Assembly: GCA_963783865.1 (NCBI GenBank)
Contig: CAWAPD010000003.1
Span: forward strand, 71,171 to 135,170
Origin: an uncultured Actinomycetes bacterium
GTDB lineage: Bacteria > Actinomycetota > Thermoleophilia > UBA2241
Length of the DNA stretch: 64,000 nucleotides
Direction of reading: 5' to 3'
In this document: positions 41,833 through 58,418 of the stretch, in pieces
Numbering within the stretch: position 1 is the first letter of the stretch
How the letters are laid out: the number at the start of each line of letters is the position of its first letter
The notes under the pieces: generated by a model
The model's input: the letters and a program-made list of their open reading frames with translations, nothing else
Databases searched by the model: none
What the model was told of the DNA's origin: nothing
Made by a program: the position numbers and the translations under genes

Positions 41833-42208
41833 CGCACCCGCCCGCAAGGTCCGTCATCCCGCCCAGCGCACCCGCATCGCGGCGCTGGGCGTGGGGGCGG
41901 CCGTCATGGCCGGGCTCGTGAGCCAGATGGAGGTGGAGGGCGCGGCCAAGACGGCCGCCCCCGCGCCGCCGGCCCCGGGCCATAGCTCGAGCGCCGTGAA
42001 GAAGGCGGCGGCGAGGCACGCAGCCGCCCTCGCCGCCGCGCGCTCGAAGCCGATCGTGCTGACGCCGCACGCCGTCGTCCACACGGTGTCGGCGCCGTCG
42101 TCGGGCGGAGGCTACGTGTCGTCGGGTAGCTCCGGCTACGCGGCCGCGCCGGCCCCCGCCGCCGCCCCGGCTGCTCCGGTGGCGGCCACGAGCGCGAGCG
42201 CCCCCTGA
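41825..42208 (+). CDS. Hypothetical membrane-anchored low-complexity (Ala/Pro/Ser-rich) protein
   Basis: Start at MTDAPARK with RBS GAAGGAGGAG. One TM helix (IAALGVGAAVMAGLV). Overlaps the previous gene. Confidence 0.35.
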   Translation: MTDAPARKVRHPAQRTRIAALGVGAAVMAGLVSQMEVEGAAKTAAPAPPAPGHSSSAVKKAAARHAAALAAARSKPIVLTPHAVVHTVSAPSSGGGYVSSGSSGYAAAPAPAAAPAAPVAATSASAP

Positions 42209-42212
42209 TCCT

Positions 42213-43181
42213 GTGGTCGAGGTCGAGCCGACAGGCGTGAGCGTCGCGTCCTTCCGCGTGATGGCGAGCGCGACGCAGGTGATCCTGGTCGACGCGCCGC
42301 CGGGCGCCGAGGCGTATGCCCGGTGGCGGCTGGAGCAGCTCGAAGGTCGTTGGAGCCGGTTCCTGCCCGACAGCGAGCTGTCGCGCCTGAACGAGGCGCC
42401 GGGGGCGCTGCTGCGGGTGTCGGACGACACCGTGGCGCTGCTCACGGCCATGCGCGAGGCGCACGGCGTGACCGGCGGCCGTTTCGACCCCACGATGCTT
42501 GACGCGATCGTCGAGGTCGGCTACACGCTGAGCGTCGACGGGTCGGGCCGTCGCTCGCTCCCGCGCGCGGCGCGGCGGTCACGCGCACGTACGCGACAAT
42601 TCGGCAGGACCGTGCTGGACGTCGAGGTCGACCACGACCTCTCGGCGGTCGTCATGCCGGCCGGCCTGGGCCTTGACCCGGGCGGGATCGGCAAGGGCCT
42701 GGCCGCCGACATCGTGGTGATCGAGCTGCTCGCCGGCGGGACTGCCGGCGCGCTGGTGTGCGTGGGCGGCGACCTGGCGGCCGCCGCCACGCCCCCGGCG
42801 GCCGGCGGGTGGCCCGTCGTCGTCACCGACCCGTTCGACGCCGCCCGCTCGATCGCGAGCTTCGCGATCGAGGCCGGCGGCGTCGCCACCTCCAGCACGC
42901 GCTCGCGCGCCTGGACGACGCGCGGCGTGCGCCGTCACCACGCCCTCGATCCCGACACCCTGACGAGCTCCGAGACCGACCTGGCCACGGCGACGGTCGT
43001 CGCCCGGGCAGGCTGGGAGGCCGAAGCGCACGCCACTGCCGCCCTGCTCTGCGGCTCTGGCCGCGTCCTCGACTACCTCGCCCGACACGGCCTCGACGGT
43101 CTCGCCGTGAGTCTCGACGGCGCCGTCCTGGCCACTCCCGCCCTGCAAGACGCCGTCATCCCCGAAAGGAGCGTGGCGTGA
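42213..43181 (+). CDS. FAD:protein FMN transferase (ApbE family)
   Basis: ApbE motifs: DPGGIGKG and a C-terminal Mg/FAD-binding region. Confidence 0.75.
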   Translation: MVEVEPTGVSVASFRVMASATQVILVDAPPGAEAYARWRLEQLEGRWSRFLPDSELSRLNEAPGALLRVSDDTVALLTAMREAHGVTGGRFDPTMLDAIVEVGYTLSVDGSGRRSLPRAARRSRARTRQFGRTVLDVEVDHDLSAVVMPAGLGLDPGGIGKGLAADIVVIELLAGGTAGALVCVGGDLAAAATPPAAGGWPVVVTDPFDAARSIASFAIEAGGVATSSTRSRAWTTRGVRRHHALDPDTLTSSETDLATATVVARAGWEAEAHATAALLCGSGRVLDYLARHGLDGLAVSLDGAVLATPALQDAVIPERSVA

Positions 43182-43762
43182 GCCCAGAGACCCTCTGGTA
43201 CATCAGCCGGGCCGCGGGCATCGTCGCCTGGCTCACGCTGACGAGCTTGGTGCTGTTCGGCATCGTGCTCTCCACCGACCTTTTCCCGAAGTGGCGTCGC
43301 AGCGCGTGGCTGCTCGACGTGCACCGCTGGCTGGCCGGCCTGACGCTCTTCTTCTTCGCCGGCCACATCGGCACCCTGCTCGCCGACCCGCACGCCCACA
43401 TCGGCCTGCGGCAGGCGACCGTCCCCTTCGCCAGCTCCTGGCGGCCGACGGCCGTCGCCGCCGGCGTGATCTCCGCCTGGCTGCTGCTCGCCGTCGAGGG
43501 CACGGCGCTGGCCAACCGACGCCTGCCGAGGTGGCTGTGGCGCGACCTCCACATCGTCGGCTACTGGGTCTTCTGGGCGGCCTGCGTCCACGGCGCCTTC
43601 GCCGGCACCGACGCGACGCGACGCGTGTACATGGTCACCGCGATGGTCGGGATCGCGGCCGTCGTCTTCGCGGCCTCGTACCGGATCCTCGCGCGTGACC
43701 TGCCCAAGCGCCGGACCGCCCGCGGGCGCCAGCCGCGGCAGGCAGACGAGGCCCACGGCTGA
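43178..43762 (+). CDS. Ferric-reductase-like transmembrane domain protein (MsrQ/FRD-like di-haem membrane protein)
   Basis: GTG overlaps the ApbE stop. RBS AAAGGAG. Six TM helices with paired His residues (HRW...HIGTLL / HIVGYWVF..H). Confidence 0.6.
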   Translation: MSPETLWYISRAAGIVAWLTLTSLVLFGIVLSTDLFPKWRRSAWLLDVHRWLAGLTLFFFAGHIGTLLADPHAHIGLRQATVPFASSWRPTAVAAGVISAWLLLAVEGTALANRRLPRWLWRDLHIVGYWVFWAACVHGAFAGTDATRRVYMVTAMVGIAAVVFAASYRILARDLPKRRTARGRQPRQADEAHG

Positions 43763-43775
43763 CGGACCGGGCGGG

Positions 43776-43799
43776 GGCCGGCCGTCCGGCCGGCCCCCC
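43776..43799 (+). terminator. Intrinsic terminator after the ApbE-FRD operon
   Basis: GGGGGCCGGCC gtcc GGCCGGCCCCC. Confidence 0.6.
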
Positions 43800-43834
43800 T
43801 GCCTCGTGCTAGTATCGCCGCCGCTTGCTCTCGT

Positions 43835-43865
43835 AGCTCAGCGGAGAGAGCACAGACAACCTCGT
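43835..43865 (+). repeat. Partial copy of the tRNA-Arg 5' half (acceptor 5' strand plus D-arm); putative att-type direct repeat
   Basis: TTGCTCTCGTAGCTCAGCGGAGAGAGCACAG compared with TTGCCCTCGTAGCTCAGTGGATAGAGCACAG at 56818-56848 gives 28/31 identity. It does not continue into an anticodon or T-arm. Confidence 0.55.
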
Positions 43866-43919
43866 CTCGCTCGCCAACCGTCGCTGCTGACCCGTGCTGG
43901 TGTGGCTGAGTCCGTTCGC

Positions 43920-44411
43920 TCAGCCTCCGTTGGGAGCCGAGATCGTGCCCTTGAACTGGAAGTTCAACACGCCCTTGATGAAATCGCCGTAGCCGTCGAT
44001 GGTCCCCTTGCCGGTAGCGTTGCTGAACCGGCCCGTTCCCCCGGTCACCGTCCATTGACCGATCCCGCGGAGCACGCCCGGGGCCACCGGGATAGCGACG
44101 TCTTGGCTGGTCAGCGTGAGCGTGTCGCCGTTGGCCGCCGTATACGTCTCGGTGTTGATGTTGTCGAGCCCTCCGGGGATGCTGCTGTCCGGGCCTGTGA
44201 TGACCGCGATCCCATGGTTGGCGCCGCGCCCGAGATGACTGGAGATGCCGGTGCCGCTGAAGGCCACGGTGTCAGGGCCGGTGAAGGCGGCCGTGCCCGA
44301 ATACGACCCGTGAATGGGTACCTGATGGACTCCGGCACCAAGTGCTGAGCTCGCGGTCAGCCCAAGAGCCACGAGAGCGAGCAGCGCCGCGAAGATGAGC
44401 TTCCTGATCAT
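43920..44411 (-). CDS. Secreted hypothetical protein (Gly/Thr-rich beta-type)
   Basis: Start at MIRKLIFAALLALVALGLTASSALGAG (signal peptide) with a GAGGAGG RBS. No recognisable domain. Confidence 0.5.
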   Translation of the reverse strand: MIRKLIFAALLALVALGLTASSALGAGVHQVPIHGSYSGTAAFTGPDTVAFSGTGISSHLGRGANHGIAVITGPDSSIPGGLDNINTETYTAANGDTLTLTSQDVAIPVAPGVLRGIGQWTVTGGTGRFSNATGKGTIDGYGDFIKGVLNFQFKGTISAPNGG

Positions 44412-44462
44412 CGGCCTTGTCCTCCTCTGTAGAGCGAGGCGCAACCTGAAACGGACTCTCCG

Positions 44463-44837
44463 TACGTTTCCCGCCGGGGCGATGCAACCCAGTGACTGTG
44501 TGGCGCGTGGCGAACCCGAGGGACCGTATGCGGCGACAAGGCCGTCTACATCGACCCGATCAGCCGGCCTGGATCGCCCGGACCTCCCTGGCGCGCCGCC
44601 GAAAGGCCCAACGCGCTTAGCATCCGCATTAGTGCGTCATAGACCACTATTACGGTCGGTGTGAGTCTCCGGCGAGGAGCGGCGCCTCCGCCCTATCGAG
44701 AGGGCGACCATGAGCCTCATCGTACGAGACGCGGTGTGCGACTCCGACGCCTGCGAATCTGGATGCGACGCACACGAACACGTGCTTCTTGAGGCCGACC
44801 TATCAGGACCCGGGGGCCCCAGCGGAAGGGGCACGTC
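44463..44837 (+). repeat. Conserved upstream leader region, copy A (homologous to 51470..51723)
   Basis: Shared blocks TGTGTGGCGCGTGGCGAACCC, CATCGACCCGATCAGCC, CTGGATGCGACGC, GTGCTTCTTGAGGC, CAGCGGAAGGGGC. Copy A carries an extra insertion of about 100 nt. Confidence 0.6.
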
Positions 44838-45524
44838 ATGACGAGACTGGCAGGACCACGGCCACGCACGTCCGTCACGCTCGTTCTCGCGTCACTCGTC
44901 CTGCTGCCGGCGCTCACGCTCGCCGCCTGCGCCGGTAACCGTTCGGCGGCGGCCACTCCTCCCGCAGCTGTCGGGAGCCCTTCGACGGCGTCGGCGGCCG
45001 CCAGCAGTCCCCCGTCTGGCCATGCGGCGACCGCCTCGAGCATCGGCGACGGCGTCTATCGGGTCGGGACAGACATCCCCGCGGGCAGGTACAAGGGGAC
45101 CACGGTCAGCGACAGCGACGCGGGCGGCCTCTGGGGCCTCTGGCAGGTATCGAGCGACGCCAACGGCTCCAGCATCATCGCGAGCGACACCGCCACAAAC
45201 CTCACAGGCCAGTTCTACGTTCAGGTCAAGAAGGGCCAGTACCTCAAGCTTTCGGGTGTGGAGATCGTGAAGGCGCCAGTGGCAGCACCTACGAAGATGC
45301 GGTCGAGCGTCGGTGACGGCGTCTACCTGGTCGGGACCGACATCCCCGCGGGCAGGTACAGGGGGGAGCCGACGAATGAATTCGGGGGCAGCTGGAAGAC
45401 GTCACGCGACGCGAACGGCACCCTGGTCGTCCACTCAGCCCATCCAGCTAGGCCCTTCCACATCCACGTGAAGAAGGGCCGGTACCTCTATCTCATGGGA
45501 CTCACGCTCAGGCGAGTCAAGTAG
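44838..45524 (+). CDS. Lipoprotein with an internal tandem about 75-aa repeat (paralog A)
   Basis: Lipobox LTLAAC. Two copies of GDGVY.VGTDIPAGRY.G...W..S.DANG...VKKG.YL.L.G. Confidence 0.6.
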   Translation: MTRLAGPRPRTSVTLVLASLVLLPALTLAACAGNRSAAATPPAAVGSPSTASAAASSPPSGHAATASSIGDGVYRVGTDIPAGRYKGTTVSDSDAGGLWGLWQVSSDANGSSIIASDTATNLTGQFYVQVKKGQYLKLSGVEIVKAPVAAPTKMRSSVGDGVYLVGTDIPAGRYRGEPTNEFGGSWKTSRDANGTLVVHSAHPARPFHIHVKKGRYLYLMGLTLRRVK

Positions 45525-45552
45525 GCAAGAAGGCAAGAAGCCGCTCAAGACG

Positions 45553-45813
45553 TCAGACTCCCGTGCGCCGCACCCAGGTCAACGAGCTGGGCACCTCGGC
45601 GGGGCTCACCGCGCGCGGCGCCTGGCCTCGGCGCACGAGGTTGAAGCGCGCCTTCTTGCCGCCGCCGCCGCAACACTCGTAGGCGACCTCGGTGCCGTCC
45701 TCGGCGATCATCGTCGCCGCGACCCAGCACACCTGGTTGGAGCCCTCCGCGCACTCGACGACCTGCGCCGGCGTCATGCATCCCAGCTCCGTGCACTTCG
45801 ACTCGTCGTTCAT
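45553..45813 (-). CDS. Small Cys-rich protein encoded downstream of arsR (putative metal/arsenite-binding)
   Basis: 86 aa: MNDESKCTELGCM..VVECAEGSNQVCW...YECCGGGG. RBS AAGGACGGGGG. Sits on the same strand as arsR and downstream of it. Confidence 0.4.
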   Translation of the reverse strand: MNDESKCTELGCMTPAQVVECAEGSNQVCWVAATMIAEDGTEVAYECCGGGGKKARFNLVRRGQAPRAVSPAEVPSSLTWVRRTGV

Positions 45814-45835
45814 CTCGAGCCCCCGTCCTTTGGTG

Positions 45836-46183
45836 TCAGCCGCCGGTCAGATCCTGCAGGGCGCGCAGCGTCGCCGCGAACGCCTCGGTGTCGAGCGCGT
45901 AGAAGGTCCACTTGCCGCGCGTCTCCTCGGTCACCAGGCCGGCCTCTTTGAGCACCCGCAGGTGGTAGGACGTGCGGGACTGCCCGAGACCGAACTGCTC
46001 CTGGAACTCGCAGACGCAGATGCCGGCTGGGGTGCCCTCGCCGGGGACGTTGCGCGTGCAGAGGTCGGGCAGCTCGCAACAGTCCCGGCCCTCGGCGAGC
46101 ATGCCGAGCATCTTCAGGCGGATCGGGTCGGACAGGGCTTTGGCGGCCCGGGCCAGCTGCGTGACGTCGGTGGTGGCCGGCAT
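45836..46183 (-). CDS. arsR: ArsR/SmtB-family metalloregulator
   Basis: HTH LSDPIRLKMLGML and a Cys-rich sensing segment (CCELPDLC...CVC). Confidence 0.8.
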   Translation of the reverse strand: MPATTDVTQLARAAKALSDPIRLKMLGMLAEGRDCCELPDLCTRNVPGEGTPAGICVCEFQEQFGLGQSRTSYHLRVLKEAGLVTEETRGKWTFYALDTEAFAATLRALQDLTGG

Positions 46184-46288
46184 CCGTCCTCCCTCAGACC
46201 AAGAAACGCTGATATGGACTTGACATCAAAACCTCGTGATGTGAGCATCATACCACTGGAGTGTGATTTGACAACAGAGGGATGAGCC
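46184..46288. promoter_or_regulatory. Divergent arsR / arsM promoter-operator region
   Basis: TTGACA hexamers at about 46213 and 46268. Imperfect inverted repeat GTGATG-tgag-CATCAT, plausibly the ArsR operator. Confidence 0.4.
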
Positions 46289-47143
46289 ATGGCCGACGAC
46301 ACGACAGTCCGCGACGACGAGCTGAAGGAGCAGATCCGCGAGCGCTACGCCGAAAGGGCGCGGGAGGTCACCGAGTCGGCGCAGTCGGCGAGCTGCTGCG
46401 ACTCCGTCTGCTGCGGCGCCACGCCGCCGGTGGCCAACGACGAGCTCGCCCGCGGGCTCTACAGTGTCGAGGAGACCGGTGAGCTGCCCGATCAGGCGGT
46501 GCTGGCCAGTCTCGGGTGCGGCAACCCGACGGCGCTGGCCGAGCTGCACGAGGGCGAGGTCGTGCTCGATCTGGGCAGCGGCGGCGGGATCGACGTGCTG
46601 CTGTCGGCCCGTCGCGTCGGGCCGACCGGCAAGGCCTACGGTCTCGACATGACCGACGAGATGCTCGCGCTGGCGCGCGAGAACCAGCGCCGGGCCGGCG
46701 TCGCCAACGTCGAGTTCCTCAAGGGCGAGATCGAAGCCGTGCCGCTGCCCGACGTGTCGGTCGACGTGATCATCAGTAACTGCGTCATCAACCTTTCGCT
46801 GGACAAGGACAAGGTGCTCGCCGAGGCGTACCGCGTGCTGAGGCCCGGCGGGCGCTTCGCCGTCAGCGACATGGTCTTCAGGGGCGACCTCAGCCTGGTG
46901 CCCGACGAGATCATGCGCAGCGTCGAGGCGTGGGGCGGTTGCATCTCGGGGGCGCTCGAGGAGAGCGACTACGTCGCCCGCCTCGAGCGCGCCGGCTTCG
47001 TCGACGCCGAGGTCGTGGTGACCCAGGACTACCGCGAGACCTACGGCGCCGAGATCGAGCGGGCCTGCGGTGTCGGCCTGCCGGACGGCGTCACCCTGGT
47101 GGGCGCCTTCGTGCGCGCCGCCAAGCCGGCGGCGGCCAAGTAG
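46289..47143 (+). CDS. arsM: Arsenite S-adenosylmethionine methyltransferase
   Basis: Conserved As(III)-binding cysteines ([11 protein letters not shown], ...GCG..., SNCVINL) and SAM motif [11 protein letters not shown]. Confidence 0.8.
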
Positions 47144-47158
47144 GGCGGCGAGTCAGCG

Positions 47159-47959
47159 ATGCGCACCATCTCCATCGGCCGGCCGTTCGCCGTCTTCTCG
47201 GACGTGCACGGCAATCTGCCCGGGCTCGAGGCGATCCTCGCCGACGTCGACCGCCGCGGGATCGCAGACGTGCTCTGCCTCGGCGACCTCGTCGGCTACG
47301 GACCCTTTCCCGACGAGGTCGCCGCGCTCGTCCGCGACCGCGGCATCCCCACCCTGATGGGCAACTACGACCAGGGTATCGGCTTCTCCACCGGCGACTG
47401 CGGCTGCGTCTACAAGACCGACGAGCAGCGCGACGAGGGGGCGGTCTCGCTGACCTGGACCGACGCGGTGACCGGCGACGAGACGCGGGCTTACCTGCGC
47501 AGCCTCGAGGACCGCTTCGTGCTGGAGACGCCGGCCGGCGAGCTGCTCGCCGTGCACGGCAGCCCGCGGCGTATCAACGAGTACCTCTTCGAGGATCGTC
47601 CGGAGAGCGCCATGACCCGCATGGCCGAGGCAAACCCCTATCGCGCCATCCTCTTCGGCCACACGCACGTGCCCTATGCGCGCGAGGTCGCCCGCGGGGC
47701 GGCCGGCGAGACGACGTTGTTCGTCAACGTCGGCAGCGCCGGCCGCCCCAAGGACGGCGACTGGCGCGTGTGCTACGCGCTGGTCGACCCCGGCAGGCTC
47801 GCCGCCGGCGAGCCTGCCGTCGAGTTCGTGCGCGTCCCTTACGACTACGATCGCCTGACCGCGGCGCTCGCGGCGACCGACCTGATCACCGCGTTCGACC
47901 CTCCGCCACACCCGGCGAGCGCCGACCGGCGGGCGGCCACCGGCGGAGACACACGGTGA
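47159..47959 (+). CDS. Metallophosphoesterase family protein (YfcE/MJ0936-like)
   Basis: Motifs [18 protein letters not shown], and GHTH. Confidence 0.7.
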
Positions 47960-49134
47960 CCTCACACGACGGCGTCACGCGCAGGCTCTCGTTCCTCGAC
48001 CGCTACCTGACGCTCTGGATCTTCCTCGCCATGTTCGCCGGGGTGTTCCTCGGCTGGGCGTTCACCGGCCTGCCACAGTTCATCCAGCGCTGGTCGGTGG
48101 GCACGACCAACATCCCCATCGCCATCGGCCTCATCGTGATGATGTATCCGCCACTGGCCAAGGTGCGCTACGAGGAGCTCGGCGACGTCTTCCGCGACTG
48201 GAAGATCCTCGGCCTGTCGCTGGTGCAGAACTGGGTGATCGGGCCGATCGTGATGTTCCTGCTCGCGGTCGTCTTCCTGCACAACTACCCGGAGTACATG
48301 GTCGGCCTCATCATGATCGGCCTGGCGCGCTGCATCGCCATGGTCATCGTCTGGAACCAGCTCGCGAAGGGCGACACCGAGTACGCCGCCGGGCTCGTCG
48401 CCTTCAACAGCGTCTTCCAGGTCCTCTTCTACAGCCTCTTCGCCTGGATCTTCGTCACCAAGCTGCCGCCCCTGTTCGGCCTGCACGGCGTCGCCGTCGA
48501 CGTCTCCATCGGGCAGATCGCGAAGAGCGTGTTCATCTACCTCGGCATCCCGTTCGTCGCCGGCATGCTGACGCGCTACCTGGGGCTCAAGTACAAGGGC
48601 CGCGAGTGGTACGAGCAGAAGTTCATCCCCCGCATCAGTCCCCTCACGCTCATCGCCCTGCTGTTCACCATCTTCGTGATGTTCAGCCTCAAGGGCGACC
48701 TCATCGTCAAGCTGCCGCTCGACGTCGTGCGCATCGCCGTGCCGCTGCTCTGCTACTTCGTGATCATGTTCTTCGTGAGCTTCTTCATGGGCCGCCGCGT
48801 CGGCGCCGACTACTCGAAGACGGCCACGCTGAGCTTCACGGCCGCGAGCAACAACTTCGAGCTGGCGATCGCGGTCACGGTCGCCGTCTTCGGCCTGAAC
48901 TCCGGGCAGGCGTTCGCGGCGGTCATCGGCCCGCTGGTGGAGGTGCCGGTCATGATCGGCCTCGTGAACGTGGCGCTGTTGATGGGGCGCAGGTACTGGG
49001 GGATGACCGACGAGCCGCTGCCGGCGGCGGTCGAGGCAGGGTTGGAGGACGTCGCGTGCGACCCGCTCGAGGGCCGGCCGACCGGCGGCGTACGGACGAT
49101 CGAACCGGGACGAACGAGAGAGGCGAGCGAATGA
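47956..49134 (+). CDS. acr3: Arsenite efflux transporter, ACR3 family
   Basis: GTG overlaps the upstream stop. Ten TM helices. ACR3 signature MMYPPLAKV and conserved Cys in ...GLARCIAMV. Confidence 0.85.
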
Positions 49135-49394
49135 GCGACACGGACAAGGCGGTCCGGCACATCGACATCGAGTGGGGCCCGGCGATCGACGCCGCGGCCT
49201 GCACCGGTTGTGGGACCTGCATCGACTTCTGCCACCACGACGTTTACGCGTGGAGCGACGACCGGAGCACCGTGGTGGTCGCACGCAAGACGGACTGCGT
49301 GCCCGGCTGCTCCCACTGCGGCACGCTCTGCGAGGCGCAGGCGATCTCGTTCCCGACCTTCGAGGACATCAAGCGGGCGCGCCGCGGCGAGTGA
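49131..49394 (+). CDS. Small 2x[4Fe-4S] ferredoxin-like protein
   Basis: [11 protein letters not shown] and [12 protein letters not shown] cysteine clusters. ATG overlaps the acr3 stop (ATGA). Confidence 0.6.
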
Positions 49395-49431
49395 GCTCGC
49401 AGCGGATCCGCGAACAACGAAGGAGGAAGAC

Positions 49432-49968
49432 ATGAGCAAGCCCCGGGTGCTGTTCATGTGTACCGGCAACACGGCGCGCAGCCAGATGGCCGAGGCCTTC
49501 CTGCGCGCCTACGGGGGCGACCGCTACGAGGCCTACAGCGCCGGCTTCGAGCCGAAAGAGATCAACCCGCTGACGATCGCGGTCATGCAGGAACGCGGGT
49601 TCGACCTGGCCGGCCAGTACGCCAAGGGGCTGAGCGAGTTTCTCGGCAGGGTGCACTTCGGCTATCTCATCACGGTCTGCAGCCGGGCGGAGGCCGAGTG
49701 CCCCACCTTCCCCGGCATGGGTACGCGCGAGAACTGGTCGTTCGAGGATCCCGCCGCTTTCGAGGGGACACAGGAGGAGCGTCTCGAGAAGTTCCGTGAG
49801 GTCCGCGACGCGATCGAGACCCGCGTCCGCGAGTGGCTCGCAGGCGCACTGACCCCGCCGTTTCCTTCCTCTCGTCGCTTGATGACTTCAAGCACCTGCG
49901 AAGCGGTGAATGGGCACGGAGGGTGGGCGGGGCTCGACGAGGTCGTCTCGCTCGCAAGCCGCCGCTAA
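49432..49968 (+). CDS. arsC: Arsenate reductase, LMW-PTPase family
   Basis: P-loop [16 protein letters not shown], second Cys in [23 protein letters not shown]. Confidence 0.8.
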
Positions 49969-49993
49969 ACCCTTCCCGTGCCCATGGCCTTTC

Positions 49994-50482
49994 TCAGACG
50001 GCGATCTCCCCAAGCCGGGAGCCGGAACCTTGGACACGCGCCTCGATGAAGTCCTTGAAGCGCCCCAGATCCGCTGCCACCACCTCGTTCACCGCCGCCA
50101 GCATGTAGCTCTCATTCGCCATGAGCGCGGCTTCCGGCTCCCAGTCCATATGGAAGGTGACGCGACACGCCGAATCCCCGAGCGGCTCGAACGTGACGCG
50201 GCCCCCGTTGGGCTTCTCATCAGGCGTTGCACCGACGCTCTCCCAGGAGATGCGACTGTTCGGGACCTGCTCGGTGATCCGGGCGTCCCACTCGCGGGTC
50301 TCGCCCTCGACCGTGGCGACCTCGCTCCTGACCTTTGCGACCCAGTGGAGGCGGCTCTCGTCGATCTGCTCGACAGACGCGACCCCTTCCATCCACCGGG
50401 GGAAGGTCTCGAACTGGGCCCACTGGCCGTACGCGGTGGCGACGTCGACGTTCACGTGTACGGACTGTTCTACGGTAGGCAT
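49994..50482 (-). CDS. SRPBCC-family (polyketide cyclase / AHSA1-like) protein
   Basis: Bet v1-like pattern (HVNVDVATAYGQWAQFETFPRWM). Start at MPTVEQ with a GAGGAGG RBS. Confidence 0.6.
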   Translation of the reverse strand: MPTVEQSVHVNVDVATAYGQWAQFETFPRWMEGVASVEQIDESRLHWVAKVRSEVATVEGETREWDARITEQVPNSRISWESVGATPDEKPNGGRVTFEPLGDSACRVTFHMDWEPEAALMANESYMLAAVNEVVAADLGRFKDFIEARVQGSGSRLGEIAV

Positions 50483-50628
50483 GGAGTACGCCTCCTCATG
50501 TGACTCAAGGGCTACATTCGGCCGAGGCCGGGGGCGATGGATGCCTCGGCCTCGGCAGCTTCTCAATGGTTGCGCCCTTCAGGCCACGGACATGACGCAT
50601 GTCCGCGCGACCCGCGGTCCGACGCTTG

Positions 50629-51447
50629 TCACGCCGCCGGTCGCAGCTCGCTCCTGGGGGCGGCCGCGGAGGCGGGCGCGACGGACTCGACCGGCTCGAA
50701 GCCGAGCTGCTTCAGACCAGCAGGCCTGAAGCCCTTGACGACGAGGTAGACGCCCAGCGAGAACTCCCACACCGCGATCGGCAGTGCGGCGAGCCCTGAG
50801 ATCGGGGATCCATAGTGGTTGGCGCCGAACAACGTCGCGATGCTGGAAGCGAGAAGCAGGGGCGCTCCGATGAATCCGATCACGGGCAGGATGCGCGGCA
50901 CCAGGCGCGACTGGTAGAGCAGGGAACCCAGCAGTACGGCACTCACGGCCGGGAAGAGGCTCTGCCCGAGGACCATTGTCCAGTCATGCATGCTGATCAG
51001 CGCATGGCTGGTGGCCAGTGCACTCGTTCCGGTGCCGGCCCGCCGCAGGGCAACCACCGACAGGAGGGTGAAGACGCCGACGAAGATCATGGAGGCTTCC
51101 AGGGTGCGCACGCCGACGAAGCCCAGCGCCATCCCTTCGTTCTGCCGCTTGACCACCGGGTAGAGCGCCACGGCGGTGCCGATGCCGGCGAGGGCCACGA
51201 TCAGCTCCAGGGTGCCGCCGATGAACACGCGAGTGTCCGGGCCGGGGCCGAGGATGTAGTTCGCCCCACGCACCGCAGTGTAGAGAAACAGGGTCGGGAC
51301 CGAGACGAAGGTGATCAGGTAGAACACTCCCGCGGTCAGCGAGATCTTTCTCGTCGAAGTCCATGTTGATCGACTCCCTCCAAACGGCTCTTTGTCGAGC
51401 CGGGCGATTGCGACGATGCGCATACGAATATCTCGAAAACTCAGCAC
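50629..51447 (-). CDS. DUF4386-like polytopic membrane protein
   Basis: Seven to eight TM helices, no catalytic motifs. Start uncertain. Confidence 0.4.
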   Translation of the reverse strand: MLSFRDIRMRIVAIARLDKEPFGGSRSTWTSTRKISLTAGVFYLITFVSVPTLFLYTAVRGANYILGPGPDTRVFIGGTLELIVALAGIGTAVALYPVVKRQNEGMALGFVGVRTLEASMIFVGVFTLLSVVALRRAGTGTSALATSHALISMHDWTMVLGQSLFPAVSAVLLGSLLYQSRLVPRILPVIGFIGAPLLLASSIATLFGANHYGSPISGLAALPIAVWEFSLGVYLVVKGFRPAGLKQLGFEPVESVAPASAAAPRSELRPAA

Positions 51448-51469
51448 CCCGGCTTAGCAGGGGATGCCT

Positions 51470-51723
51470 GACCATGCCCTGTGTGGCGCGTGGCGAACCC
51501 AAGGGACCGTTCGCGGCGACAAGCCCGTTCACATCGACCCGATCAGCCGACCTGGGCCGCCCGGATCTCCCTGGCGCCGCCGAAGGGCCCAACACGTTAG
51601 CGTTCCGCACTAGTGAGCCATAGACGACTCCGACGCCTGCAAACCTGGATGCGACGCGCACGAAGAGGTGCTTCTTGAGGCAGACCTGTCAGAACTCGGG
51701 GGCCACAGCGGAAGGGGCGCGTC
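51470..51723 (+). repeat. Conserved upstream leader region, copy B
   Basis: See copy A. The shared blocks run over about 250 nt and end at the start codon. Confidence 0.6.
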
Positions 51724-52389
51724 ATGGTGAGACTAGCAGGACCACGACCACGCATATCCATCACGCGCGTTCTCGCGTCACTCGTCTTGCTGCCGGCGCT
51801 CACGCTCGCCGCCTGCGCCGGTAACCGTTCGACGGCCGCCACTCCCACCGCAGCAGTCGGGAGCCCGTCGACAGCACCGGCCGCCAGCAGTCCCTCGCCT
51901 GGCCATGCGGCGACCGCGCCGAACGTCGGCGACGGCGTCTATCTGGTCGGGACCGACATCCCCGCGGGCAGGTACAGGGGGACCGGGGTCAGCGACGCCG
52001 GCCTATGGCAGGTATCGAGCGACCCCAACGGCTCCAGCATCGTCGCGAGCGACACCACCACGACCACCACGGGCCAGTTCTATGTTCAGGTCAAGAAAGG
52101 CCAGTACCTCAAGCTTTCGGGTGTGGAGATCGTGAAGGCGCCAGCGGCAGCGCCTACGAAGATGCGGTCGAGCGTCGGCGACGGCACCTATCTGGTCGGC
52201 ACCGACATCCCCGCCGGCAGGTACAGGGGGGAGCCGACGTCTGACTGGGGGGGCTCGTGGAGGATATCGCGCGACGCGAACGGCACCCTAGGCGTCCATT
52301 CAGCCCATCCAGCTAGGCCCTTCTCCATCCACGTGAAGAAGGGCCGGTACCTCGACCTCATCGGGCTCACGCTCACGCGAGTCAAGTAA
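51724..52389 (+). CDS. Lipoprotein with an internal tandem repeat (paralog B)
   Basis: Roughly 80% identical to paralog A, same lipobox LTLAAC and the same two-repeat architecture. Confidence 0.6.
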   Translation: MVRLAGPRPRISITRVLASLVLLPALTLAACAGNRSTAATPTAAVGSPSTAPAASSPSPGHAATAPNVGDGVYLVGTDIPAGRYRGTGVSDAGLWQVSSDPNGSSIVASDTTTTTTGQFYVQVKKGQYLKLSGVEIVKAPAAAPTKMRSSVGDGTYLVGTDIPAGRYRGEPTSDWGGSWRISRDANGTLGVHSAHPARPFSIHVKKGRYLDLIGLTLTRVK

Positions 52390-52539
52390 GCATGCCCTGG
52401 AATCTCGATGGTGGAGTCATTCACCACGATGTTGCTGTCGCCGGTTACCAGGCGGCCGCGTTGACGAACACACACGCTGGTGACGCAAGGGGCCGCCTTC
52501 AGGCGGCCCCTTGCGTTCCGGACCCGTCCGAGCGCGCCG

Positions 52540-53172
52540 TCAGGGGTTCGCCCGCAGGTACTCCTCGATGCCCGACATGTCGCCCTGCTTGGCCCGATCG
52601 ACCAGCTCCTTGAAGTACGTGACCGATTCCTTCACGAAGCCGCCCGCCTCCTCGGGATCGCCGTCTCTGTGCAGCGGCATCAGCCTGATCTGGCGCTCGA
52701 CAGCCGCGATCGCCGCCTGCTCCCGAGCGGTGTCCTTCGCATCGTGCGCTGCCACCCACTCCCTGAGCCAGGCATTGGTCGACTGCCCCCAGGCAGCGAT
52801 GAAGCCGAACTTGCTGCCGAAGACCGCGTCGGCAGGCAAATCCGGCTCGGTCCACGTGGCGCCGGCCGGGAGCGGCATCCGCTGCTGGGCGGCATGGAAC
52901 TCGTTCAGCGCCGTCGGCCGGTCGGTGAGGTAGGAGAAGTAAGCCCAGGCCGCGGTGGGGAGAACCACGGCGAGCAGCGCGGCGACGAGCGCGACTCGCG
53001 CCACCTGCCGGCCCCGGGAACTCCGGGGAGGCGCAGAAGCCTGCCGTCGCTCCGAGACGGGCTCCGAGCGGAGGATCGCCTCCCGGGTGGCCTCGCGGAC
53101 GGCGGGGGAGGCGGGCGGCATGGTCCGCGCGGGGTCGGCAGCCGCGATGGTAGCCATGAGTCGATCAGTCAT
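52540..53172 (-). CDS. Anti-sigma factor (single-pass membrane)
   Basis: Overlaps the ECF sigma gene by 8 nt. One TM helix (VALVAALLAVVLPTAAWAYF) and a periplasmic domain. Confidence 0.55.
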   Translation of the reverse strand: MTDRLMATIAAADPARTMPPASPAVREATREAILRSEPVSERRQASAPPRSSRGRQVARVALVAALLAVVLPTAAWAYFSYLTDRPTALNEFHAAQQRMPLPAGATWTEPDLPADAVFGSKFGFIAAWGQSTNAWLREWVAAHDAKDTAREQAAIAAVERQIRLMPLHRDGDPEEAGGFVKESVTYFKELVDRAKQGDMSGIEEYLRANP

Positions 53173-53782
53173 GCCGGCCTCCTTGGGTCACCAGACAGGG
53201 ATGGCGGTTCGGCGCCTCCGGTTCTTGTACGCCCGATAGGGCATCGGGACCCGCCTCCGCGACCAGCGCGCGGAACCTGCGCCGGGCGCGATGCAGCCGC
53301 AGGGCGACGTTGGCCCGGGAGCAGCCGAGGACCACGGCCACGGCGCCGCGGTCCAGGCCCTCCCAGGCCACCAGCAGAAGGACCTCGCGGTCGGCTTCGG
53401 GCAGCCGCTGGAGGAGTTGCAGCACGCGGCCGCCGCTCTCGCCGGCGGCGACGAGCGGCGTGTCGGCTTCCTCGCGCGGCCGGGCCGTCGCTTCGGTCAG
53501 TTCCCGCTCCCGGCGTCGCCGCTCGCCCCGTTGGATGTTGAGGTGCGCGTTCCGCGCCACGGCGAGCAGCCAGGGAAGGGCGGCGTCGGCGGGAATGTCG
53601 CCGAGCCGCTTCCAGGCCACGAGGAATGTCTCCGCCACCACGTCGTCCGCGAACGCGGGGTCCCGTCGCCAGGCATACGCCCTGACAACCGCGTGATGGG
53701 CGTCGTAGAGGGCGTTGAACTCGCCCTCGCGGCGTTTCACGTGATCATGCATCTTCCTCCTTCGCTTCGCGGATGCTCTCAC
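53165..53782 (-). CDS. ECF (sigma-70 family, group IV) sigma factor; likely true start at the internal Met (53752)
   Basis: Region 2 (HAVVRAYAWRR...DVVAETFLVAWKRL) and region 4 HTH (EVLLLVAWEGLDRGAVAVVLGCSRANVALRLHRARRRF). Confidence 0.75.
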   Translation of the reverse strand: MRASAKRRRKMHDHVKRREGEFNALYDAHHAVVRAYAWRRDPAFADDVVAETFLVAWKRLGDIPADAALPWLLAVARNAHLNIQRGERRRRERELTEATARPREEADTPLVAAGESGGRVLQLLQRLPEADREVLLLVAWEGLDRGAVAVVLGCSRANVALRLHRARRRFRALVAEAGPDALSGVQEPEAPNRHPCLVTQGGRHD

Positions 53783-54079
53783 GCTCTAGTGTCCGCGGCG
53801 AGCCGGAGGATTTCAGGGACAGGCTCGATGGTGCCTGCGATCGGCACACGTAGACGACGTCGAAGTTGGCGAACGCGCGCGCCTATGGCCCTCGCACTGG
53901 GCGCCGCCACTCCCGGCAGGCTCGCCTGGCCGACCTTGGGGCCGCTGATGTCGTGGCCAAGGTTTTCGCGGGCTTCCAGCGGTTCCTCTACCAGCCGCAG
54001 ACGGCAGCCTGAGAGGGCCCGCTGTGGCTCACGCCGTCGGTCGGCGTGAGCAGATTCCCTCCGCTCCGCGCGACATGAT

Positions 54080-55384
54080 GTGTCCATGTCACACGATCGC
54101 CTCAGCGGCTTCGTCCGCCCCGCCAAGCGCCAGGGCAAGGCCGTCCGCGGCCTCTGGGAGCTGTGGGTCTGCCTCCCGCCCGAGCCTGCGCAGAGCAAGG
54201 ACGGCCTTCCCCCGCTCGACGCCAAGGGCCACCCGAAGATGCGCTACCCGAAGACCATGAAGTGCGTCGAGGCGCAGGGAAAGAAGGCCGCCGAGCGCCT
54301 GTTAGAAGCCTGCATCGCCGAGCTCGAACAGCACGGCTCGATCGACGTTGAGCGCCTCACCCTCACCGGCCTCCTCGACCGCTGGCTCGAGGCGACCTAC
54401 GGCGAGATGCGGGTGGCCACCAGGAACTCCTACGCGGGCATCCGACGCCTCCACGTCGACCCGGCCCTCGGCCAGGTCCTCGCCTGTCAGCTGACACGCA
54501 CCCAGCTCTCCGCCTACTACTCGGCCAAGATGCGCGGCAACGGGCACAAGCCCCTCGCCGAGACGACGGTCGCCCACCACCACTCGATGATCAAGGCCGC
54601 CTTCAACTGGGCGATCGATGAGGAGCTGCTCCAGGCCAACCCGGCGGCGCGGGTGAAGAGCCCGCCGGCGCTACGCCCCAAGGTGCGGCCGGTGTGGAGC
54701 ATGGAGGAGATCGCCCGCGTGGTGGTCAAGGCCCGCGGCCTGCAGGTCCACGCCGCTGGCGTGCTCGCGGGCTTCTCTGGGCTGCGCGTCGGTGAGATCG
54801 CCGGCTTGCGCTGGAGCGACCTTGACCTGGACAAGGGCTTCGTCTGCGTCTCGCGCACCGTCGAGGAGGACGAGGACAAGACCCTCATCGAGTACCCGCC
54901 GAAGAACGGCAAGGCACGGGTAGTGCCGCTGCCGGCCGCGGCCTGTGACGAGCTGCGCGCCGCCCTGCAGGCGCAGCGCGAGTACAAGCTGGCCCAGGGC
55001 AAGAGGTGGAACGAGGCCGGCCACGTGATCCCCAGGAAGGACGGTACGCCGATGGCACCGTCGTCCCTCAAGAGCCAGTGGTGGAACTGGGTGGCCCGCC
55101 AGAAGATCGACCCGCACCTGCCTCTCCACGGCCTGCGGGACTCGTTCGGTACCTGGGTGTACGAGACCTACGGCGTCAAGCAGGCCCAGGAGTGGCTCGG
55201 CCACGGCGATCCCGCCACGACACTCCGGCACTACGTGCGCCTGACGACGGCCGCCAGGGCGAAGGCGGTCGCGGGTCTCGACGAGGTGACGCGGGCTGCG
55301 CTGGAGGCGGCCGAAGAGCGGGCCGTGCAGGACGCGGCGCCGGTCCGCGACAACGTCGTCGCGCTGGCAAGTCGCCGCAGGTAG
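54080..55384 (+). CDS. int: Tyrosine-type site-specific integrase
   Basis: SAM-like N-domain. Catalytic R (GLRVGEIAGLRWSDL), K, HGLRDSFGT (H-x-x-R), W, HxxR, and the nucleophile Y in RHYVRL. Confidence 0.85.
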   Translation: MSMSHDRLSGFVRPAKRQGKAVRGLWELWVCLPPEPAQSKDGLPPLDAKGHPKMRYPKTMKCVEAQGKKAAERLLEACIAELEQHGSIDVERLTLTGLLDRWLEATYGEMRVATRNSYAGIRRLHVDPALGQVLACQLTRTQLSAYYSAKMRGNGHKPLAETTVAHHHSMIKAAFNWAIDEELLQANPAARVKSPPALRPKVRPVWSMEEIARVVVKARGLQVHAAGVLAGFSGLRVGEIAGLRWSDLDLDKGFVCVSRTVEEDEDKTLIEYPPKNGKARVVPLPAAACDELRAALQAQREYKLAQGKRWNEAGHVIPRKDGTPMAPSSLKSQWWNWVARQKIDPHLPLHGLRDSFGTWVYETYGVKQAQEWLGHGDPATTLRHYVRLTTAARAKAVAGLDEVTRAALEAAEERAVQDAAPVRDNVVALASRRR

Positions 55385-55601
55385 CCCCCTTCGGCGGCCC
55401 TTGAGCTCCATTTCCGACCGCAGCGAGTTCGACGGCCTCGCCGGCGAGCCAGAGACCGACGTGGTATCTCGTGGTTCTGGACCGCCACCAGACGCCGAGG
55501 CATCCACACGACCGCGCGTGAAGGCGCGGGCTGGCTCGCACGAGCCCGCCCCGTCTCACGGCCCTTCGGAAGTGTGCGCTCTGTCTACCGAGCCACGAGG
55601 G

Positions 55602-56465
55602 TCATGGTCGCAGCTCCCTTGTGACTGCGTCCAGGAAACTCACAGGCTCCCGACGCAGCAGCATTCTCAGGACATTGCTGTTGCCGCAGTACCCGTACTT
55701 GTCGTAGTGATCGAGCATGGCCTTCATCTCGAGACTGGCTTCTTGCCCAAGGCGGGCGGCAGCCGCGGCGGCGCCGGCGGCAGGAGTCAGCGACGTGACT
55801 CCGACATCCTTGCCTAGGGCCGTCGAAATGACCCGTGCCATCTCCATGATGTTCAGACGCTCGCTTCCCGCCAGCTCGTAGTTCGCGTATTCGTGGCCAC
55901 TCTCGAGCAGGACGGATGCTGCCGCTTCCGCGAGGTCCTCGAGGTCGATCGGAGTGAACCACTGCTCGGGACTGAAGCCCACTCTGAGCTGCATCCCGTC
56001 TTCGCTGAGGAATCTCAGAATCGTCTGGGAGTAGATGCACGGCTGAAGGACCGTCCACTCGAGAGGAGACTCTCGGAGTGCGAGTTCCACCTTTGCTTTC
56101 CTCTCGTGGTGGACCATGGACGGCGTCGCGGAGTGCATGACCGAGTGGTAGATCAGCCGCGCCAGGCCGGCGCGCTCAGCAGCTGCTATGACGTTTGCGC
56201 CGTACTGCTCCTCGCGTGCGTCGAACGCCGGCGGGATGTAGTAGGCCGCGTCCACCCCGGTGAAGGCCCGCGTCAGTCCCGCCATGTCCTCCAGGGCGAC
56301 TGCGCTGGCTTCGGACGCCTCTGGGACCCGGTGGACTTGGTCATCGCGGTGGACGAGCGCGCGCACTCTTGCGCCGTGGCTGGTGAGCGCCTGGACGATC
56401 CGCTTGCCCGTCTGACCTGCGGCGCCGACGACGGCGACCGAAGGTGTCCCTTCCTGGGGACTCAA
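55602..56465 (-). CDS. NmrA-like / atypical SDR NAD(P)-binding protein
   Basis: VAVVGAAGQTGKRIV Rossmann motif, NmrA-like fold. Confidence 0.65.
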   Translation of the reverse strand: MSPQEGTPSVAVVGAAGQTGKRIVQALTSHGARVRALVHRDDQVHRVPEASEASAVALEDMAGLTRAFTGVDAAYYIPPAFDAREEQYGANVIAAAERAGLARLIYHSVMHSATPSMVHHERKAKVELALRESPLEWTVLQPCIYSQTILRFLSEDGMQLRVGFSPEQWFTPIDLEDLAEAAASVLLESGHEYANYELAGSERLNIMEMARVISTALGKDVGVTSLTPAAGAAAAAARLGQEASLEMKAMLDHYDKYGYCGNSNVLRMLLRREPVSFLDAVTRELRP

Positions 56466-56820
56466 TGAACCCTCCTGTGGTTGGCGATGTCATGAGCCTC
56501 ACGACGGGTCATCACTGAGCGGTACCCGAGGCGCTGCGCTGATTCATCCTACCGCCATGCCCATCTCAAAGGTCACGACCGCCGGGCTGCTCGGCGTGAT
56601 CAGCACTGGTCCCGCCCGTCCTCGCTTCGGCCCTGGCCGTCTATTCGAGAGTGGGCGGCACCGGCTCACAAGCTCGCGGTGTGACGTAGCTGCCGGAGCC
56701 AGTGTCGCCCGGCTACCGGAGCCGCGCCGCGGGTTTCCTGCAGGTTTAGCAACCTATTAGCAACTCTGGTATCCTTGCCGGGACCGTTGCCGGGATAAAA
56801 TCCCTGCAAATCGGCACTTT

Positions 56821-56893
56821 GCCCTCGTAGCTCAGTGGATAGAGCACAGGTTTCCTAAACCTGGTGTCGCTGGTTCGATTCCAGCCGGGGGCA
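56821..56893 (+). tRNA. tRNA-Arg (anticodon CCT)
   Basis: Cloverleaf: acceptor GCCCTCG/CGGGGGC, D-arm GCTC-AGTGGATA-GAGC, anticodon stem CAGGT/ACCTG with loop TTCCTAA, T-arm TGG-TTCGATT-CCA. Discriminator A, encoded CCA follows. Confidence 0.9.
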
Positions 56894-57082
56894 CCACAAA
56901 GTCCCTGCTCATGGCGATTTCCAGTAGCGCGCATCCGCGCACCTATTTTCCGATTCGGCAGAATTGCCGACATTTTGCCGACGAGACCCCCAGGGATGCG
57001 TGAGTAACGGGCGATACGCCCCAGCACGCGTCCGAGCTATGATGAAGTACGGACGATCGCTTGGACCACACCCGATCGGGAG

Positions 57083-57952
57083 TTGGACACGTCGGCGAGA
57101 CATCTCTCTACACTCACCAGCAAGTGGGTAGCGGAAGGCATGGTGCCACAGGGAGTTCAATCAGGTATTGGGAGACGGATGAACGAAACGGATCTCATGA
57201 CGGAGCGTCAGAAGGAGCTCTGCTCCTTAGTCTGGTCTAGTCTGCCGGGTCCCCAGCCAGCGCCCAGAACAAATGAAGAGCGCTGGCATCGCGTAGTCGG
57301 TCCGGCGATGCTGGTCAAGGCGACAGCCACGGCTGAGAGCATGTTCCGCCTTCTGCCTGAGAGGCGGATGACCGACTCGCTGATCCTTCTGAGGGCGCTC
57401 TACGAAGGCGTCGTGAACCTGGCTTGGGTGGCGGTCAATCCGACCCATAGACTCAACAGGCTCTACACCGAGTTCCATACGTGGCATCTCAGAGAAGACG
57501 AGGACTGGGCCAAAGCGGGTCGCCCATTACTGACGCCGGATGACGTTCAGGAGTCGCAAGCGTGGATCGACACCCACAAGACGGGGCTTCCGCATATGGC
57601 GGACCGCGCCAAGAACGCTGACAGGTACTGGGCCGCTCGTCTTGCCGGATGGCATCCTGATGCTGCGAAGATGACCGACACCCGCTCCTGGTCATCGCTT
57701 CGCGGTCTGTACCGCTTCATTTACACCCGCGGAAGCCAGGCCACTCACTCACACCATCGCGGGCTTGATCCGTTCGTCACGGTCACGGACACAGTGTGCA
57801 CTCCCCATGCTGAGAAGGAGCCAGATTCACTTGTCGTGTGGGAGCTGGGGATTCGAGTCCTGCCCTTCGGCATCGGTCCAGCCGAGAGGACATTCGGTTG
57901 GCCATCCTACGACCGGGCCATGGACATCGTCGCCGCGCTTACTGACGGCTGA
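57083..57952 (+). CDS. Hypothetical protein (island cargo); true start probably the internal MNETDLM or MTERQKEL
   Basis: Lower-GC ORF adjacent to the tRNA. No recognisable motif. Confidence 0.4.
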   Translation: MDTSARHLSTLTSKWVAEGMVPQGVQSGIGRRMNETDLMTERQKELCSLVWSSLPGPQPAPRTNEERWHRVVGPAMLVKATATAESMFRLLPERRMTDSLILLRALYEGVVNLAWVAVNPTHRLNRLYTEFHTWHLREDEDWAKAGRPLLTPDDVQESQAWIDTHKTGLPHMADRAKNADRYWAARLAGWHPDAAKMTDTRSWSSLRGLYRFIYTRGSQATHSHHRGLDPFVTVTDTVCTPHAEKEPDSLVVWELGIRVLPFGIGPAERTFGWPSYDRAMDIVAALTDG

Positions 57953-57977
57953 CCGAAGCTTTGACGTACGCGGCGGT

Positions 57978-58418
57978 CTAGGCGCTCGCCCCTGCGGAGG
58001 CAACGTTGAACACCAGCCCCGCGATCAGCGCCGCCGCCTCTTCCTGCATCGCCGGGATGGCGTGCGAGTAGGTGTCGAGGGTGATCGACACCGTAGCGTG
58101 CCCCAGACGCTCAGAGACGACCTTGGGATGGATACCGGCCTGCAGAGCGAGTGTGGCATGGGTGTGGCGCAGATCGTGCAGTCGGATCTGCGGCAACATG
58201 GCCTTCTTGACCGCCCGCCGGAACTCCCGCGTGATCGTCTCGGGATCGAGGGCAGTGCCGTCCTCCTTGGTGAAGAGGTGCCCGCTGTCGGTCCAAGCAT
58301 CCTCCCAGTCTGACTGCTCATCGAGCTGGCGCTGCGCCTGAGCCTTCAGCACCTCAACTGTGTTCGGGTCCAACGCGATAACCCTTCTGCCCTTGGCCGT
58401 CTTGGGTTCCGAGACCAC
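57978..58418 (-). pseudogene. Truncated tyrosine integrase (C-terminal catalytic domain only)
   Basis: LHDLRHTHATLALQAG (HxxR) and LGHATVSITLDTYSH (catalytic Y) are present, but the N-terminal two thirds are absent. An unrelated in-frame fragment lies at 58440-58670. Confidence 0.65.

Follow-up and report, generated by a model that had tools for sequence, protein, structure and literature searches.

The window analysed here, the whole stretch of 64,000 nt from an uncultured Actinomycetes bacterium of the Thermoleophilia (contig CAWAPD010000003.1), holds a single tRNA gene, the plus-strand tRNA-Arg(CCT), which is called by ARAGORN and scored at 69 bits by Rfam. About 13 kb upstream, on the same strand, a partial copy of this gene begins at tRNA nt 1, matches nt 1-29 at 26 of 29 positions and ends at nt 29, before the anticodon loop; the segment enclosed between the copy and the gene carries accessory genes and a tyrosine integrase (coordinates of all features are given in Table 1). 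A chance match to the copy was obtained in 0/100 dinucleotide-preserving shuffles, and an odd but complete tRNA at this position was ruled out, since neither ARAGORN nor Rfam reports one. No copy of the tRNA-Arg(CCT) 3' half was found anywhere in the 64-kb window. An earlier, sequence-only reading of the window had described the copy as 28/31 with a "TTG" directly upstream; the copy is real, and 28/31 is the count when two upstream T's are included, but the "TTG" consists of these two coincidental T's and tRNA nt 1.

The gene content which that reading had given for the segment, namely an arsenic (ars) cluster, paralogous genes, an extracytoplasmic function (ECF) sigma factor, an NmrA-like gene and a complete integrase, is borne out by Pfam and NCBIfam. 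The translated integrase shows the catalytic motifs RVGE, HGLR, LGHG and RHY, and the gene precedes the tRNA in the same orientation.

The left junction of the segment

At its left end, the segment adjoins host DNA. The partial copy starts 29 nt past the hairpin that closes the operon of ApbE / ferric-reductase-like genes, and its last position is fused directly to a 35-nt piece of an integrase 3' end (rem1), which had gone unnoticed in the sequence-only reading and is 87% identical over 37-38 nt to the integrase 3' ends of two related loci (L001 and L023), with the stop codon in register. A second integrase 3'-end remnant (rem2) lies inside the segment and combines two pieces of the integrase C-terminus, GLDEV and VVSLASRR, whose intervening stretch is deleted.

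The sequence upstream of the copy is different from that upstream of the intact tRNA gene: it lacks the conserved arm (P arm, see below) found there, and has the box GTGCTAGTAT in its place. A scan of metagenomes for tRNA-Arg(CCT) covered at least 120 loci, with 111 copies classifiable; among the matches listed, a GTGCTAnnAT box followed by 10-11 nt precedes about 11 of the 111. The box occurs upstream of tRNA-Arg(CCT), with no element arm, in L048, L056, L072, L073, L095, L122, L144, L154 and L155, and the stretch from box to tRNA reads gctacaatcgccgccgt in L048 and gctagtatcgccgccgctt in the window, followed in both cases by the G of tRNA nt 1. Genes of the GTGCTAnnAT type would be uninvaded ones with the native promoter type, and GTGCTAGTAT would then be a promoter element. 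The left copy is best taken as the displaced original 5' half of the host gene (hereafter the relic), because it has no P arm, carries the host-type box and adjoins host DNA that is collinear with two related loci, L044 and L045.

In L044, in which ApbE is 88% identical, collinearity with window positions 41093-44366 at 89% identity takes in the relic (with two further substitutions), rem1 and the next minus-strand gene. Its interior is different: a 1.1-kb alcohol-dehydrogenase gene replaces 6.1 kb of the window, and L044 rejoins the window at 50520. The junction is therefore older than the divergence of these genomes, and it is the interior that changed afterwards. L045 (ApbE 90% identical) is collinear with the window until 4 nt before the relic, the hairpin and operon end at 43773-43798 being collinear at 89% identity with both L044 and L045, and keeps a box, CGTGCTACCAT, at the host promoter position (L045 2318-2677 against window 43800-43830). 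Past this box, an unrelated PAS-domain gene stands in place of the relic and of everything up to the tRNA, which suggests a large deletion or other rearrangement at the same breakpoint.

A family of integrases that carries the tRNA 5' half

Relatives of the integrase (76-91% identical, 432-433 amino acids (aa)) are found only in metagenomes and metagenome-assembled genomes (MAGs), nearly all of the latter labelled uncultured Thermoleophilia or Actinomycetes, and no integrase of the phage and plasmid collections searched reaches 30% identity to the protein. Two MAGs labelled beta-proteobacterium and Deltaproteobacteria hold integrase pieces 83-87% identical to it (L015, CAWADK010000016.1; L036, JBLMXT010000106.1), and here a binning or labelling error is more likely than real cross-phylum transfer. 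The related loci number about 70 in all and belong to uncultured members of the Thermoleophilia and of other Actinomycetota. In L001, L002 and 20 more MAG loci, as in 23 additional metagenome matches, tRNA-Arg(CCT) follows the integrase on one and the same strand, and the orientation is constant: in 46 sources, 27 5' fragments and 21 intact tRNA-Arg(CCT) genes are all on the integrase strand, with the integrase upstream and the intact tRNA last.

Each family integrase is followed by a conserved arm of about 250 nt and tRNA nt 1-38. The 5' fragments in related loci comprise tRNA nt 1-38/39, ending in ...GGTTTCCTAA(A), each with a P arm before it; where fragments form arrays they are spaced by 2.8-8.2 kb, older ones lying further upstream. 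The minimal unit, seen in L003, L166 and L167, consists of the integrase gene (int), approximately 160 nt, the P arm and the 5' half. Cargo between int and P arm differs from locus to locus (NmrA in the window, an abhydrolase in L001), and the neighbours of other family integrases include ars genes, ECF sigma factors, alcohol dehydrogenases and the SRPBCC/DUF4386 pair. Beyond int, the sole recurrent protein is a small one of 124 aa with an N-terminal zinc ribbon, present in five loci just upstream of the integrase (L003 8978-9352, minus strand; L019, L023, L026, L039) and absent from the window; an excisionase or regulatory role is possible. On this count, a conserved backbone beyond int was rejected, and the family elements are small integrative islets. 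The closest integrase relative (91%) adjoins Dcm methylase, McrBC and Vsr genes, an anti-phage defence cargo, in L166 (Logan contig SRR26562365_43986) and L167 (SRR32923645_14290); tRNA nt 29 is the last position of both contigs, where the repeat probably broke the assembly.

The P arm contains CTACCGGAGCC repeats, CCTGCAGATTTAGCAAC-TTATTAGCAAC, an A/T-rich box (TAAAAT, TATAAT or TAAAAC) about 19 nt upstream of tRNA nt 1, and CCCTGCAAATCGGCACAAT; the repeated motifs may serve as arm sites and the A/T box as a promoter. In L003, L013, L014, L017, L019, L025, L039 and L041, the P arm and tRNA nt 1-38 run on into a second arm without tRNA sequence (P' arm), and the P' arms that follow 5' fragments are mutually homologous, with a second TTAGCAAC pair. 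The attachment site of the element (attP) thus holds the 5' portion of the tRNA gene. Among the metagenome matches listed, an element arm stands upstream in 74 of the 111 classifiable tRNA-Arg(CCT) copies. At least six different T-arms (GCTGG, GGCTG, GAAGG, GTAGG, GCAGG and GCTAG) are combined with one and the same 5' half, as predicted for chimeras of an element 5' half and a resident 3' half, and the tRNA-Arg(CCT) of the window is probably such a chimera, with nt 1-38 derived from the element.

The same gene is also used from its other side. The DNA at 57083-58418, just outside the segment, is what is left of classical elements with the tRNA 3' half, and its integrase fragment has 77-82% aa identity to integrases located downstream of the tRNA in L006, L007 and L029. 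In related loci, this second integrase family is full length, and 3' fragments starting at TTTCCTAAACCTGG lie further downstream of the tRNA, so that the same tRNA is used from both sides (second-family integrase or 3'-fragment positions are L006 15366-16610, L008 14343, L010 13106, L022 17899, L035 17785 and L039 17657). The 5' blocks of the first family and the 3' blocks of the second overlap only in the anticodon loop, which also bounds the identity block, and the crossover would therefore be placed in this loop, TTCCTAA; the host and element 5' halves are identical and offer no polymorphism by which to map the exchange point within it.

A probable decayed array upstream of tRNA-Arg(CCT)

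We consider it very likely that the segment is an old, largely immobilised array of small integrative elements, each carrying a tRNA 5' half, upstream of tRNA-Arg(CCT). It is also probable, if less securely so, that the array is composite, several element generations having been reduced by deletion until only the unit touching the tRNA was intact and the array could no longer be excised; the alternative is a single larger element that had picked up older remnants.

In the mechanism proposed for such arrays, attP would consist of the P arm with its CTACCGGAGCC and TTAGCAAC motifs and promoter-like box, tRNA nt 1-31, TTCCTAA and a P' arm of about 150 nt carrying the second TTAGCAAC pair. The integrase would recombine attP with the anticodon stem-loop of the chromosomal tRNA gene, to give the order host promoter, host 5' half, P', element body, int, optional cargo, P arm, element 5' half and host 3' half. 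From then on, the element arm would drive transcription of the working tRNA, with the host promoter and 5' half stranded far upstream. As each new integration would adjoin the 3' half, arrays would grow upstream, and older units would decay by deletion while the one touching the tRNA would be kept through selection for the tRNA. In the window, the intact rightmost unit would be made up of int, NmrA, P arm and tRNA, and the loss of the P' arm and the joining of the relic, at nt 29, to an integrase 3' end would both be due to a deletion. No P' arm was found in the window, where a profile built from 25 P' arms matched only the TTAGCAAC pair of the P arm (E = 5.5e-8); with this arm gone, excision by recombination of attL with attR would no longer be possible. 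An integrase-mediated deletion at a pseudo-site in the integrase 3' end was considered, as both remnants looked cut alike, and was rejected because rem2 is longer, with an internal deletion, and the relic junction lies at nt 29, outside the loop.

Several results weigh against the array and its proposed history. Neither an excised nor a circular form of the segment was seen, and searches of viral contigs by att junction or by integrase gave no relatives. Consensus sigma-70 scans found no promoter at the host-type box upstream of the relic or in the P arm. No element-type 5' fragment separates the supposed units of the window, which makes the number of integration events uncertain. The exact 29-mer of the relic is absent from 185,579 species genomes, so that its three differences may be decay rather than a host allele. 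L133 (1246-2619) has a tRNA-Arg(CCT) with the host-type box GTGCTACCAT and, 800 nt upstream, an integrase remnant of 60% identity. Moreover, no related genome was found with the ApbE / ferric-reductase flank beside an untouched tRNA, and neither gene is a neighbour among the metagenome tRNA-Arg(CCT) loci listed. The sequence-only reading had proposed a comparison with relatives that lack the segment and keep an empty tRNA-Arg site: L045 does lack the segment, but it also lacks the tRNA and is not such a site, and the tRNA-Arg(CCT) genes of metagenomes that have a host-type promoter and no element arm do not have the left flank of the window.

A single, essentially intact and still excisable element of 13 kb, with the 31-nt repeat pair as attL and attR, would explain why one integrase and the accessory genes are bracketed by one tRNA and one 5' copy in the same orientation, and the GC content of the segment is somewhat below that of the 5 kb to its left. 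Such an element is nevertheless improbable: the left copy ends at nt 29 and not at nt 38/39, as every other family fragment does, it is fused to an integrase remnant with a second one inside the segment, the window has no P' arm, L044 has the same left junction with 1.1 kb against the 6.1 kb of the window, and the elements of the family measure only 2.8-8.2 kb. The sequence-only reading had taken the repeats for the ends of one 13-kb element, which does not hold in view of the missing P' arm, the fusion of relic and remnant, the presence of rem2 and the different interior of L044. Its broader proposal, an origin by a tRNA-targeting tyrosine integrase with the 5' half duplicated, was right in kind, the 5' half being a property of the whole family, and the rearrangement after integration that it allowed for did take place at the left end, where the relic was joined to rem1.

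There is little to recommend the view of the left copy as a tRNA pseudogene arisen by local duplication or by chance, with the integrase a bystander, and we hold it to be very improbable: a copy of only 29 nt with three mismatches, whose exact 29-mer is absent from reference genomes, could be of this origin, the more so as tRNA 5' halves are generally conserved, but no shuffle produced a match, a box of the kind typical for intact tRNA-Arg(CCT) genes precedes the copy at its usual spacing, and about 70 loci repeat the combination of integrase, arm and 5' half in constant orientation. Least probable of all is a classical element carrying the 3' half, from which a later inversion or rearrangement would have put a 5' fragment upstream as an accident of this one genome. 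The left junction is visibly rearranged and elements with the 3' half do use the same tRNA, with their debris just downstream; the 5'-half architecture, however, is family-wide, none of the 27 fragments and 21 tRNAs is reversed, and the upstream integrases are only about 28-30% identical to the downstream family.

Known tRNA islands and the cargo of the segment

Islands with "reversed target orientation" were reportedly described by Zhao and Williams in 2002 (J Bacteriol 184:859), and the sublocation of tRNA integration in the anticodon loop, the "A" sites of Islander, is said to have been defined by Williams in the same year (Nucleic Acids Res 30:866). The Islander collection has 5' fragments at 159 of 3919 tRNA islands and 3' fragments at the other 3760, and lists 125 tandem island arrays (PMC4383910). 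Integration with a displaced 5' fragment is thus rare, though on record, and a further paper cites Zhao and Williams 2002 and several archaeal cases for it (PMC6563490). The 5' half is thus less unusual than the sequence-only reading had implied, about 4% of the catalogued tRNA islands having 5' fragments (PMC4383910), and the window is an additional case of this known minority kind rather than a new integration mode.

As in the 5'-fragment islands of these sources, the segment combines a tyrosine integrase, an intact tRNA downstream and a 5' fragment upstream in the same orientation, and the gene is made whole again with a 5' portion from the element (PMC4383910, PMC6563490). It departs from Islander islands in that the two tRNA gene copies are not the ends of one element with attL and attR arms, and from 5'-fragment islands in that its integrase belongs to a distinct family, remote from the phage and plasmid integrases searched. 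With the anticodon-loop sublocation it shares an identity block that ends at a 7-nt loop flanked by the symmetric anticodon stem; the block here extends toward the 5' end of the gene, not the 3' end, and the crossover is presumed. The atypical crossover site that had been suggested for the window would accordingly lie where it was expected, in the anticodon region, although this is a standard sublocation used in mirror orientation. Reuse of the regenerated tRNA and decay of older units with their own integrase and fragment are found in Islander tandem arrays as well (PMC4383910); the arrays described here differ in building upstream, while the second family builds classical arrays downstream in the same clade.

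The arrays also resemble other actinobacterial mobile elements. The actinomycete integrative and conjugative elements of the pSAM2 / SLP1 type and the temperate actinophages likewise have actinobacterial hosts, tRNA targets and an int gene near attP. The segment differs from them in that none of its Pfam and NCBIfam matches is a replication, transfer or virion gene, in the size of the family elements, only 2.8-8.2 kb, and in having no relatives of its family in the viral contigs searched.

It stands at about even chances that tRNA-Arg(CCT) is a two-sided hotspot in Thermoleophilia-like soil and sediment Actinomycetota and that the tRNA is read from mobile-element DNA in most of the sampled genomes; in such a hotspot, one family may replace the promoter and 5' half and an unrelated family the 3' half, through the same 7-nt loop. 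If this is true, the host depends on the element for its supply of tRNA-Arg(CCU); such dependence amounts to built-in retention of the element and would account for an array that keeps its right end and decays everywhere to the left. By supplying the promoter and 5' half, an element would take over the expression of a host gene, and this is a plausible mechanism of retention. The cargo modules shuttled in this way comprise arsenic resistance, ECF sigma factors, the SRPBCC/DUF4386 pair and Dcm-McrBC-Vsr defence genes, and the family is abundant in MAGs of soil Thermoleophilia, so that it would provide a path by which accessory genes spread in a group that has been little studied. Island finders and annotators that expect a 3' fragment downstream of the tRNA would miss such arrays or misplace their bounds; in the Thermoleophilia-like clade, it is the upstream side of the tRNA that varies, in some cases together with the downstream side. 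An integrase with a well-defined tRNA target of 49 nt might also be obtained from the family. Current understanding is not overturned, and the case is instructive rather than new.

Table 1. Features of the segment and its flanks, by position in the window
Feature	Position	Strand	Evidence or remark
Host ApbE / ferric-reductase-like operon	41260-43762		Genes by Pfam
G+C-rich hairpin closing the operon	43773-43798	+	Read from sequence
Host-type promoter box GTGCTAGTAT, putative -10 element	43806-43815	+	11 nt upstream of relic
Relic of host tRNA-Arg(CCT) 5' half, nt 1-29	43827-43855	+	3 mismatches
rem1, integrase 3'-end remnant DNLVSLANRRC*	43856-43890	+	Fused directly to relic
Cargo gene, signal-peptide-like N-terminus	43920-44444	-	GC3 gene call; 91-95% aa identity to L044
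Repeat copy 1: leader motif and Rv1352/Rv1906c-domain gene (44838-45524)	44496-45524	+	NCBIfam NF053833
Arsenic cluster, with a small open reading frame (ORF) on the minus strand	45553-49968	both	Pfam, NCBIfam
ArsR	45836-46183	-	Pfam
ArsM	46289-47143	+	NCBIfam, 326.7 bits (cutoff 263)
Metallophosphoesterase	47159-47959	+	Pfam
Acr3	SBF domain ~48121-48711, ORF ends 49134	+	Pfam
ArsC ORF, low-molecular-weight (LMW) phosphatase	49210-49968	+	Pfam
rem2, second integrase 3'-end remnant, internal deletion	49926-49968	+	In-frame tail of ArsC ORF
SRPBCC	49994-50566	-	Pfam
DUF4386	50629-51447	-	Pfam
Repeat copy 2: leader motif and paralogous Rv1352/Rv1906c-domain gene (51724-52389)	51479-52389	+	Pfam
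Overlapping gene downstream of ECF sigma factor	52540-53172	-	No Pfam/NCBIfam family match
ECF sigma factor	53165-53782	-	Pfam Sigma70_r2, r4_2
Tyrosine integrase, full length, 434 aa	54080-55384	+	PF00589, E = 2e-21
NmrA-like cargo gene, between integrase and P arm	55602-56465	-	Pfam
Element P arm	56675-56820	+	81-87% identical to sequence upstream of tRNA/5' fragments in L001-L003
P arm repeats CTGCCGGAGCC / CTACCGGAGCC	56690-56723	+
P arm TTAGCAAC pair	56746-56764	+
P arm A/T box TAAAAT, then CCCTGCAAATCGGCAC	56796-56801 (box)	+
tRNA-Arg(CCT)	56821-56896	+	ARAGORN, Rfam; anticodon loop TTCCTAA 56852-56858
DUF5677 gene, outside segment	within 57083-58418	+	Pfam
Second-family integrase C-terminal fragment, 146 aa	57978-58418	-	Pfam

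The gene next to rem1 (43920-44444) has no Pfam or NCBIfam match. Beyond it, two direct repeats of about 0.95 kb, approximately 89% identical and 7 kb apart, enclose the ars cluster, rem2 and the SRPBCC/DUF4386 pair, and each of their Rv1352/Rv1906c-domain genes is internally duplicated; the repeats arose either by duplication or by recombination between two elements. Their starts (44480 and 51463) were considered as degenerate P arms and dropped, as the alignment was unconvincing. Within the ars cluster, the ArsC ORF extends about 40 codons beyond its LMW-phosphatase domain into non-ArsC sequence that ends in rem2, so that the C-terminus of an annotated ArsC would be a fusion artefact. For the gene that overlaps the ECF sigma factor, its position makes an anti-sigma factor possible.

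An integrase remnant followed by minus-strand SRPBCC and DUF4386 genes forms a module that is also present in L034 and L032, and homologues of the pair with 67-87% aa identity occur in the arrays of L023, L026, L032, L033, L034, L037, L041, L047, L058, L106 and L130. A conserved 27-nt motif, GTGTGGCGCGTGGCGAACCCAAGGGAC, is located in the window at 44498-44524 and 51481-51507 and elsewhere at L023 15562, L026 684, L029 451, L032 16458, L033 9811 and L037 3122; it adjoins a CCCCG...CGGGG hairpin with a T run and lies upstream of minus-strand DUF4386/SRPBCC genes in seven sources. The motif could be a leader or a promoter; a structured RNA at the DUF4386 leader found no covariation support with RNAalifold and no Rfam match. 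GC values run from 0.64 to 0.72 within the segment, against 0.71-0.76 over the 5 kb on its left, and since they span 0.61-0.78 over the whole window, composition is weak evidence. The highest values, 0.755-0.784, belong to positions 12001-18000, above the remaining window (0.61-0.75).

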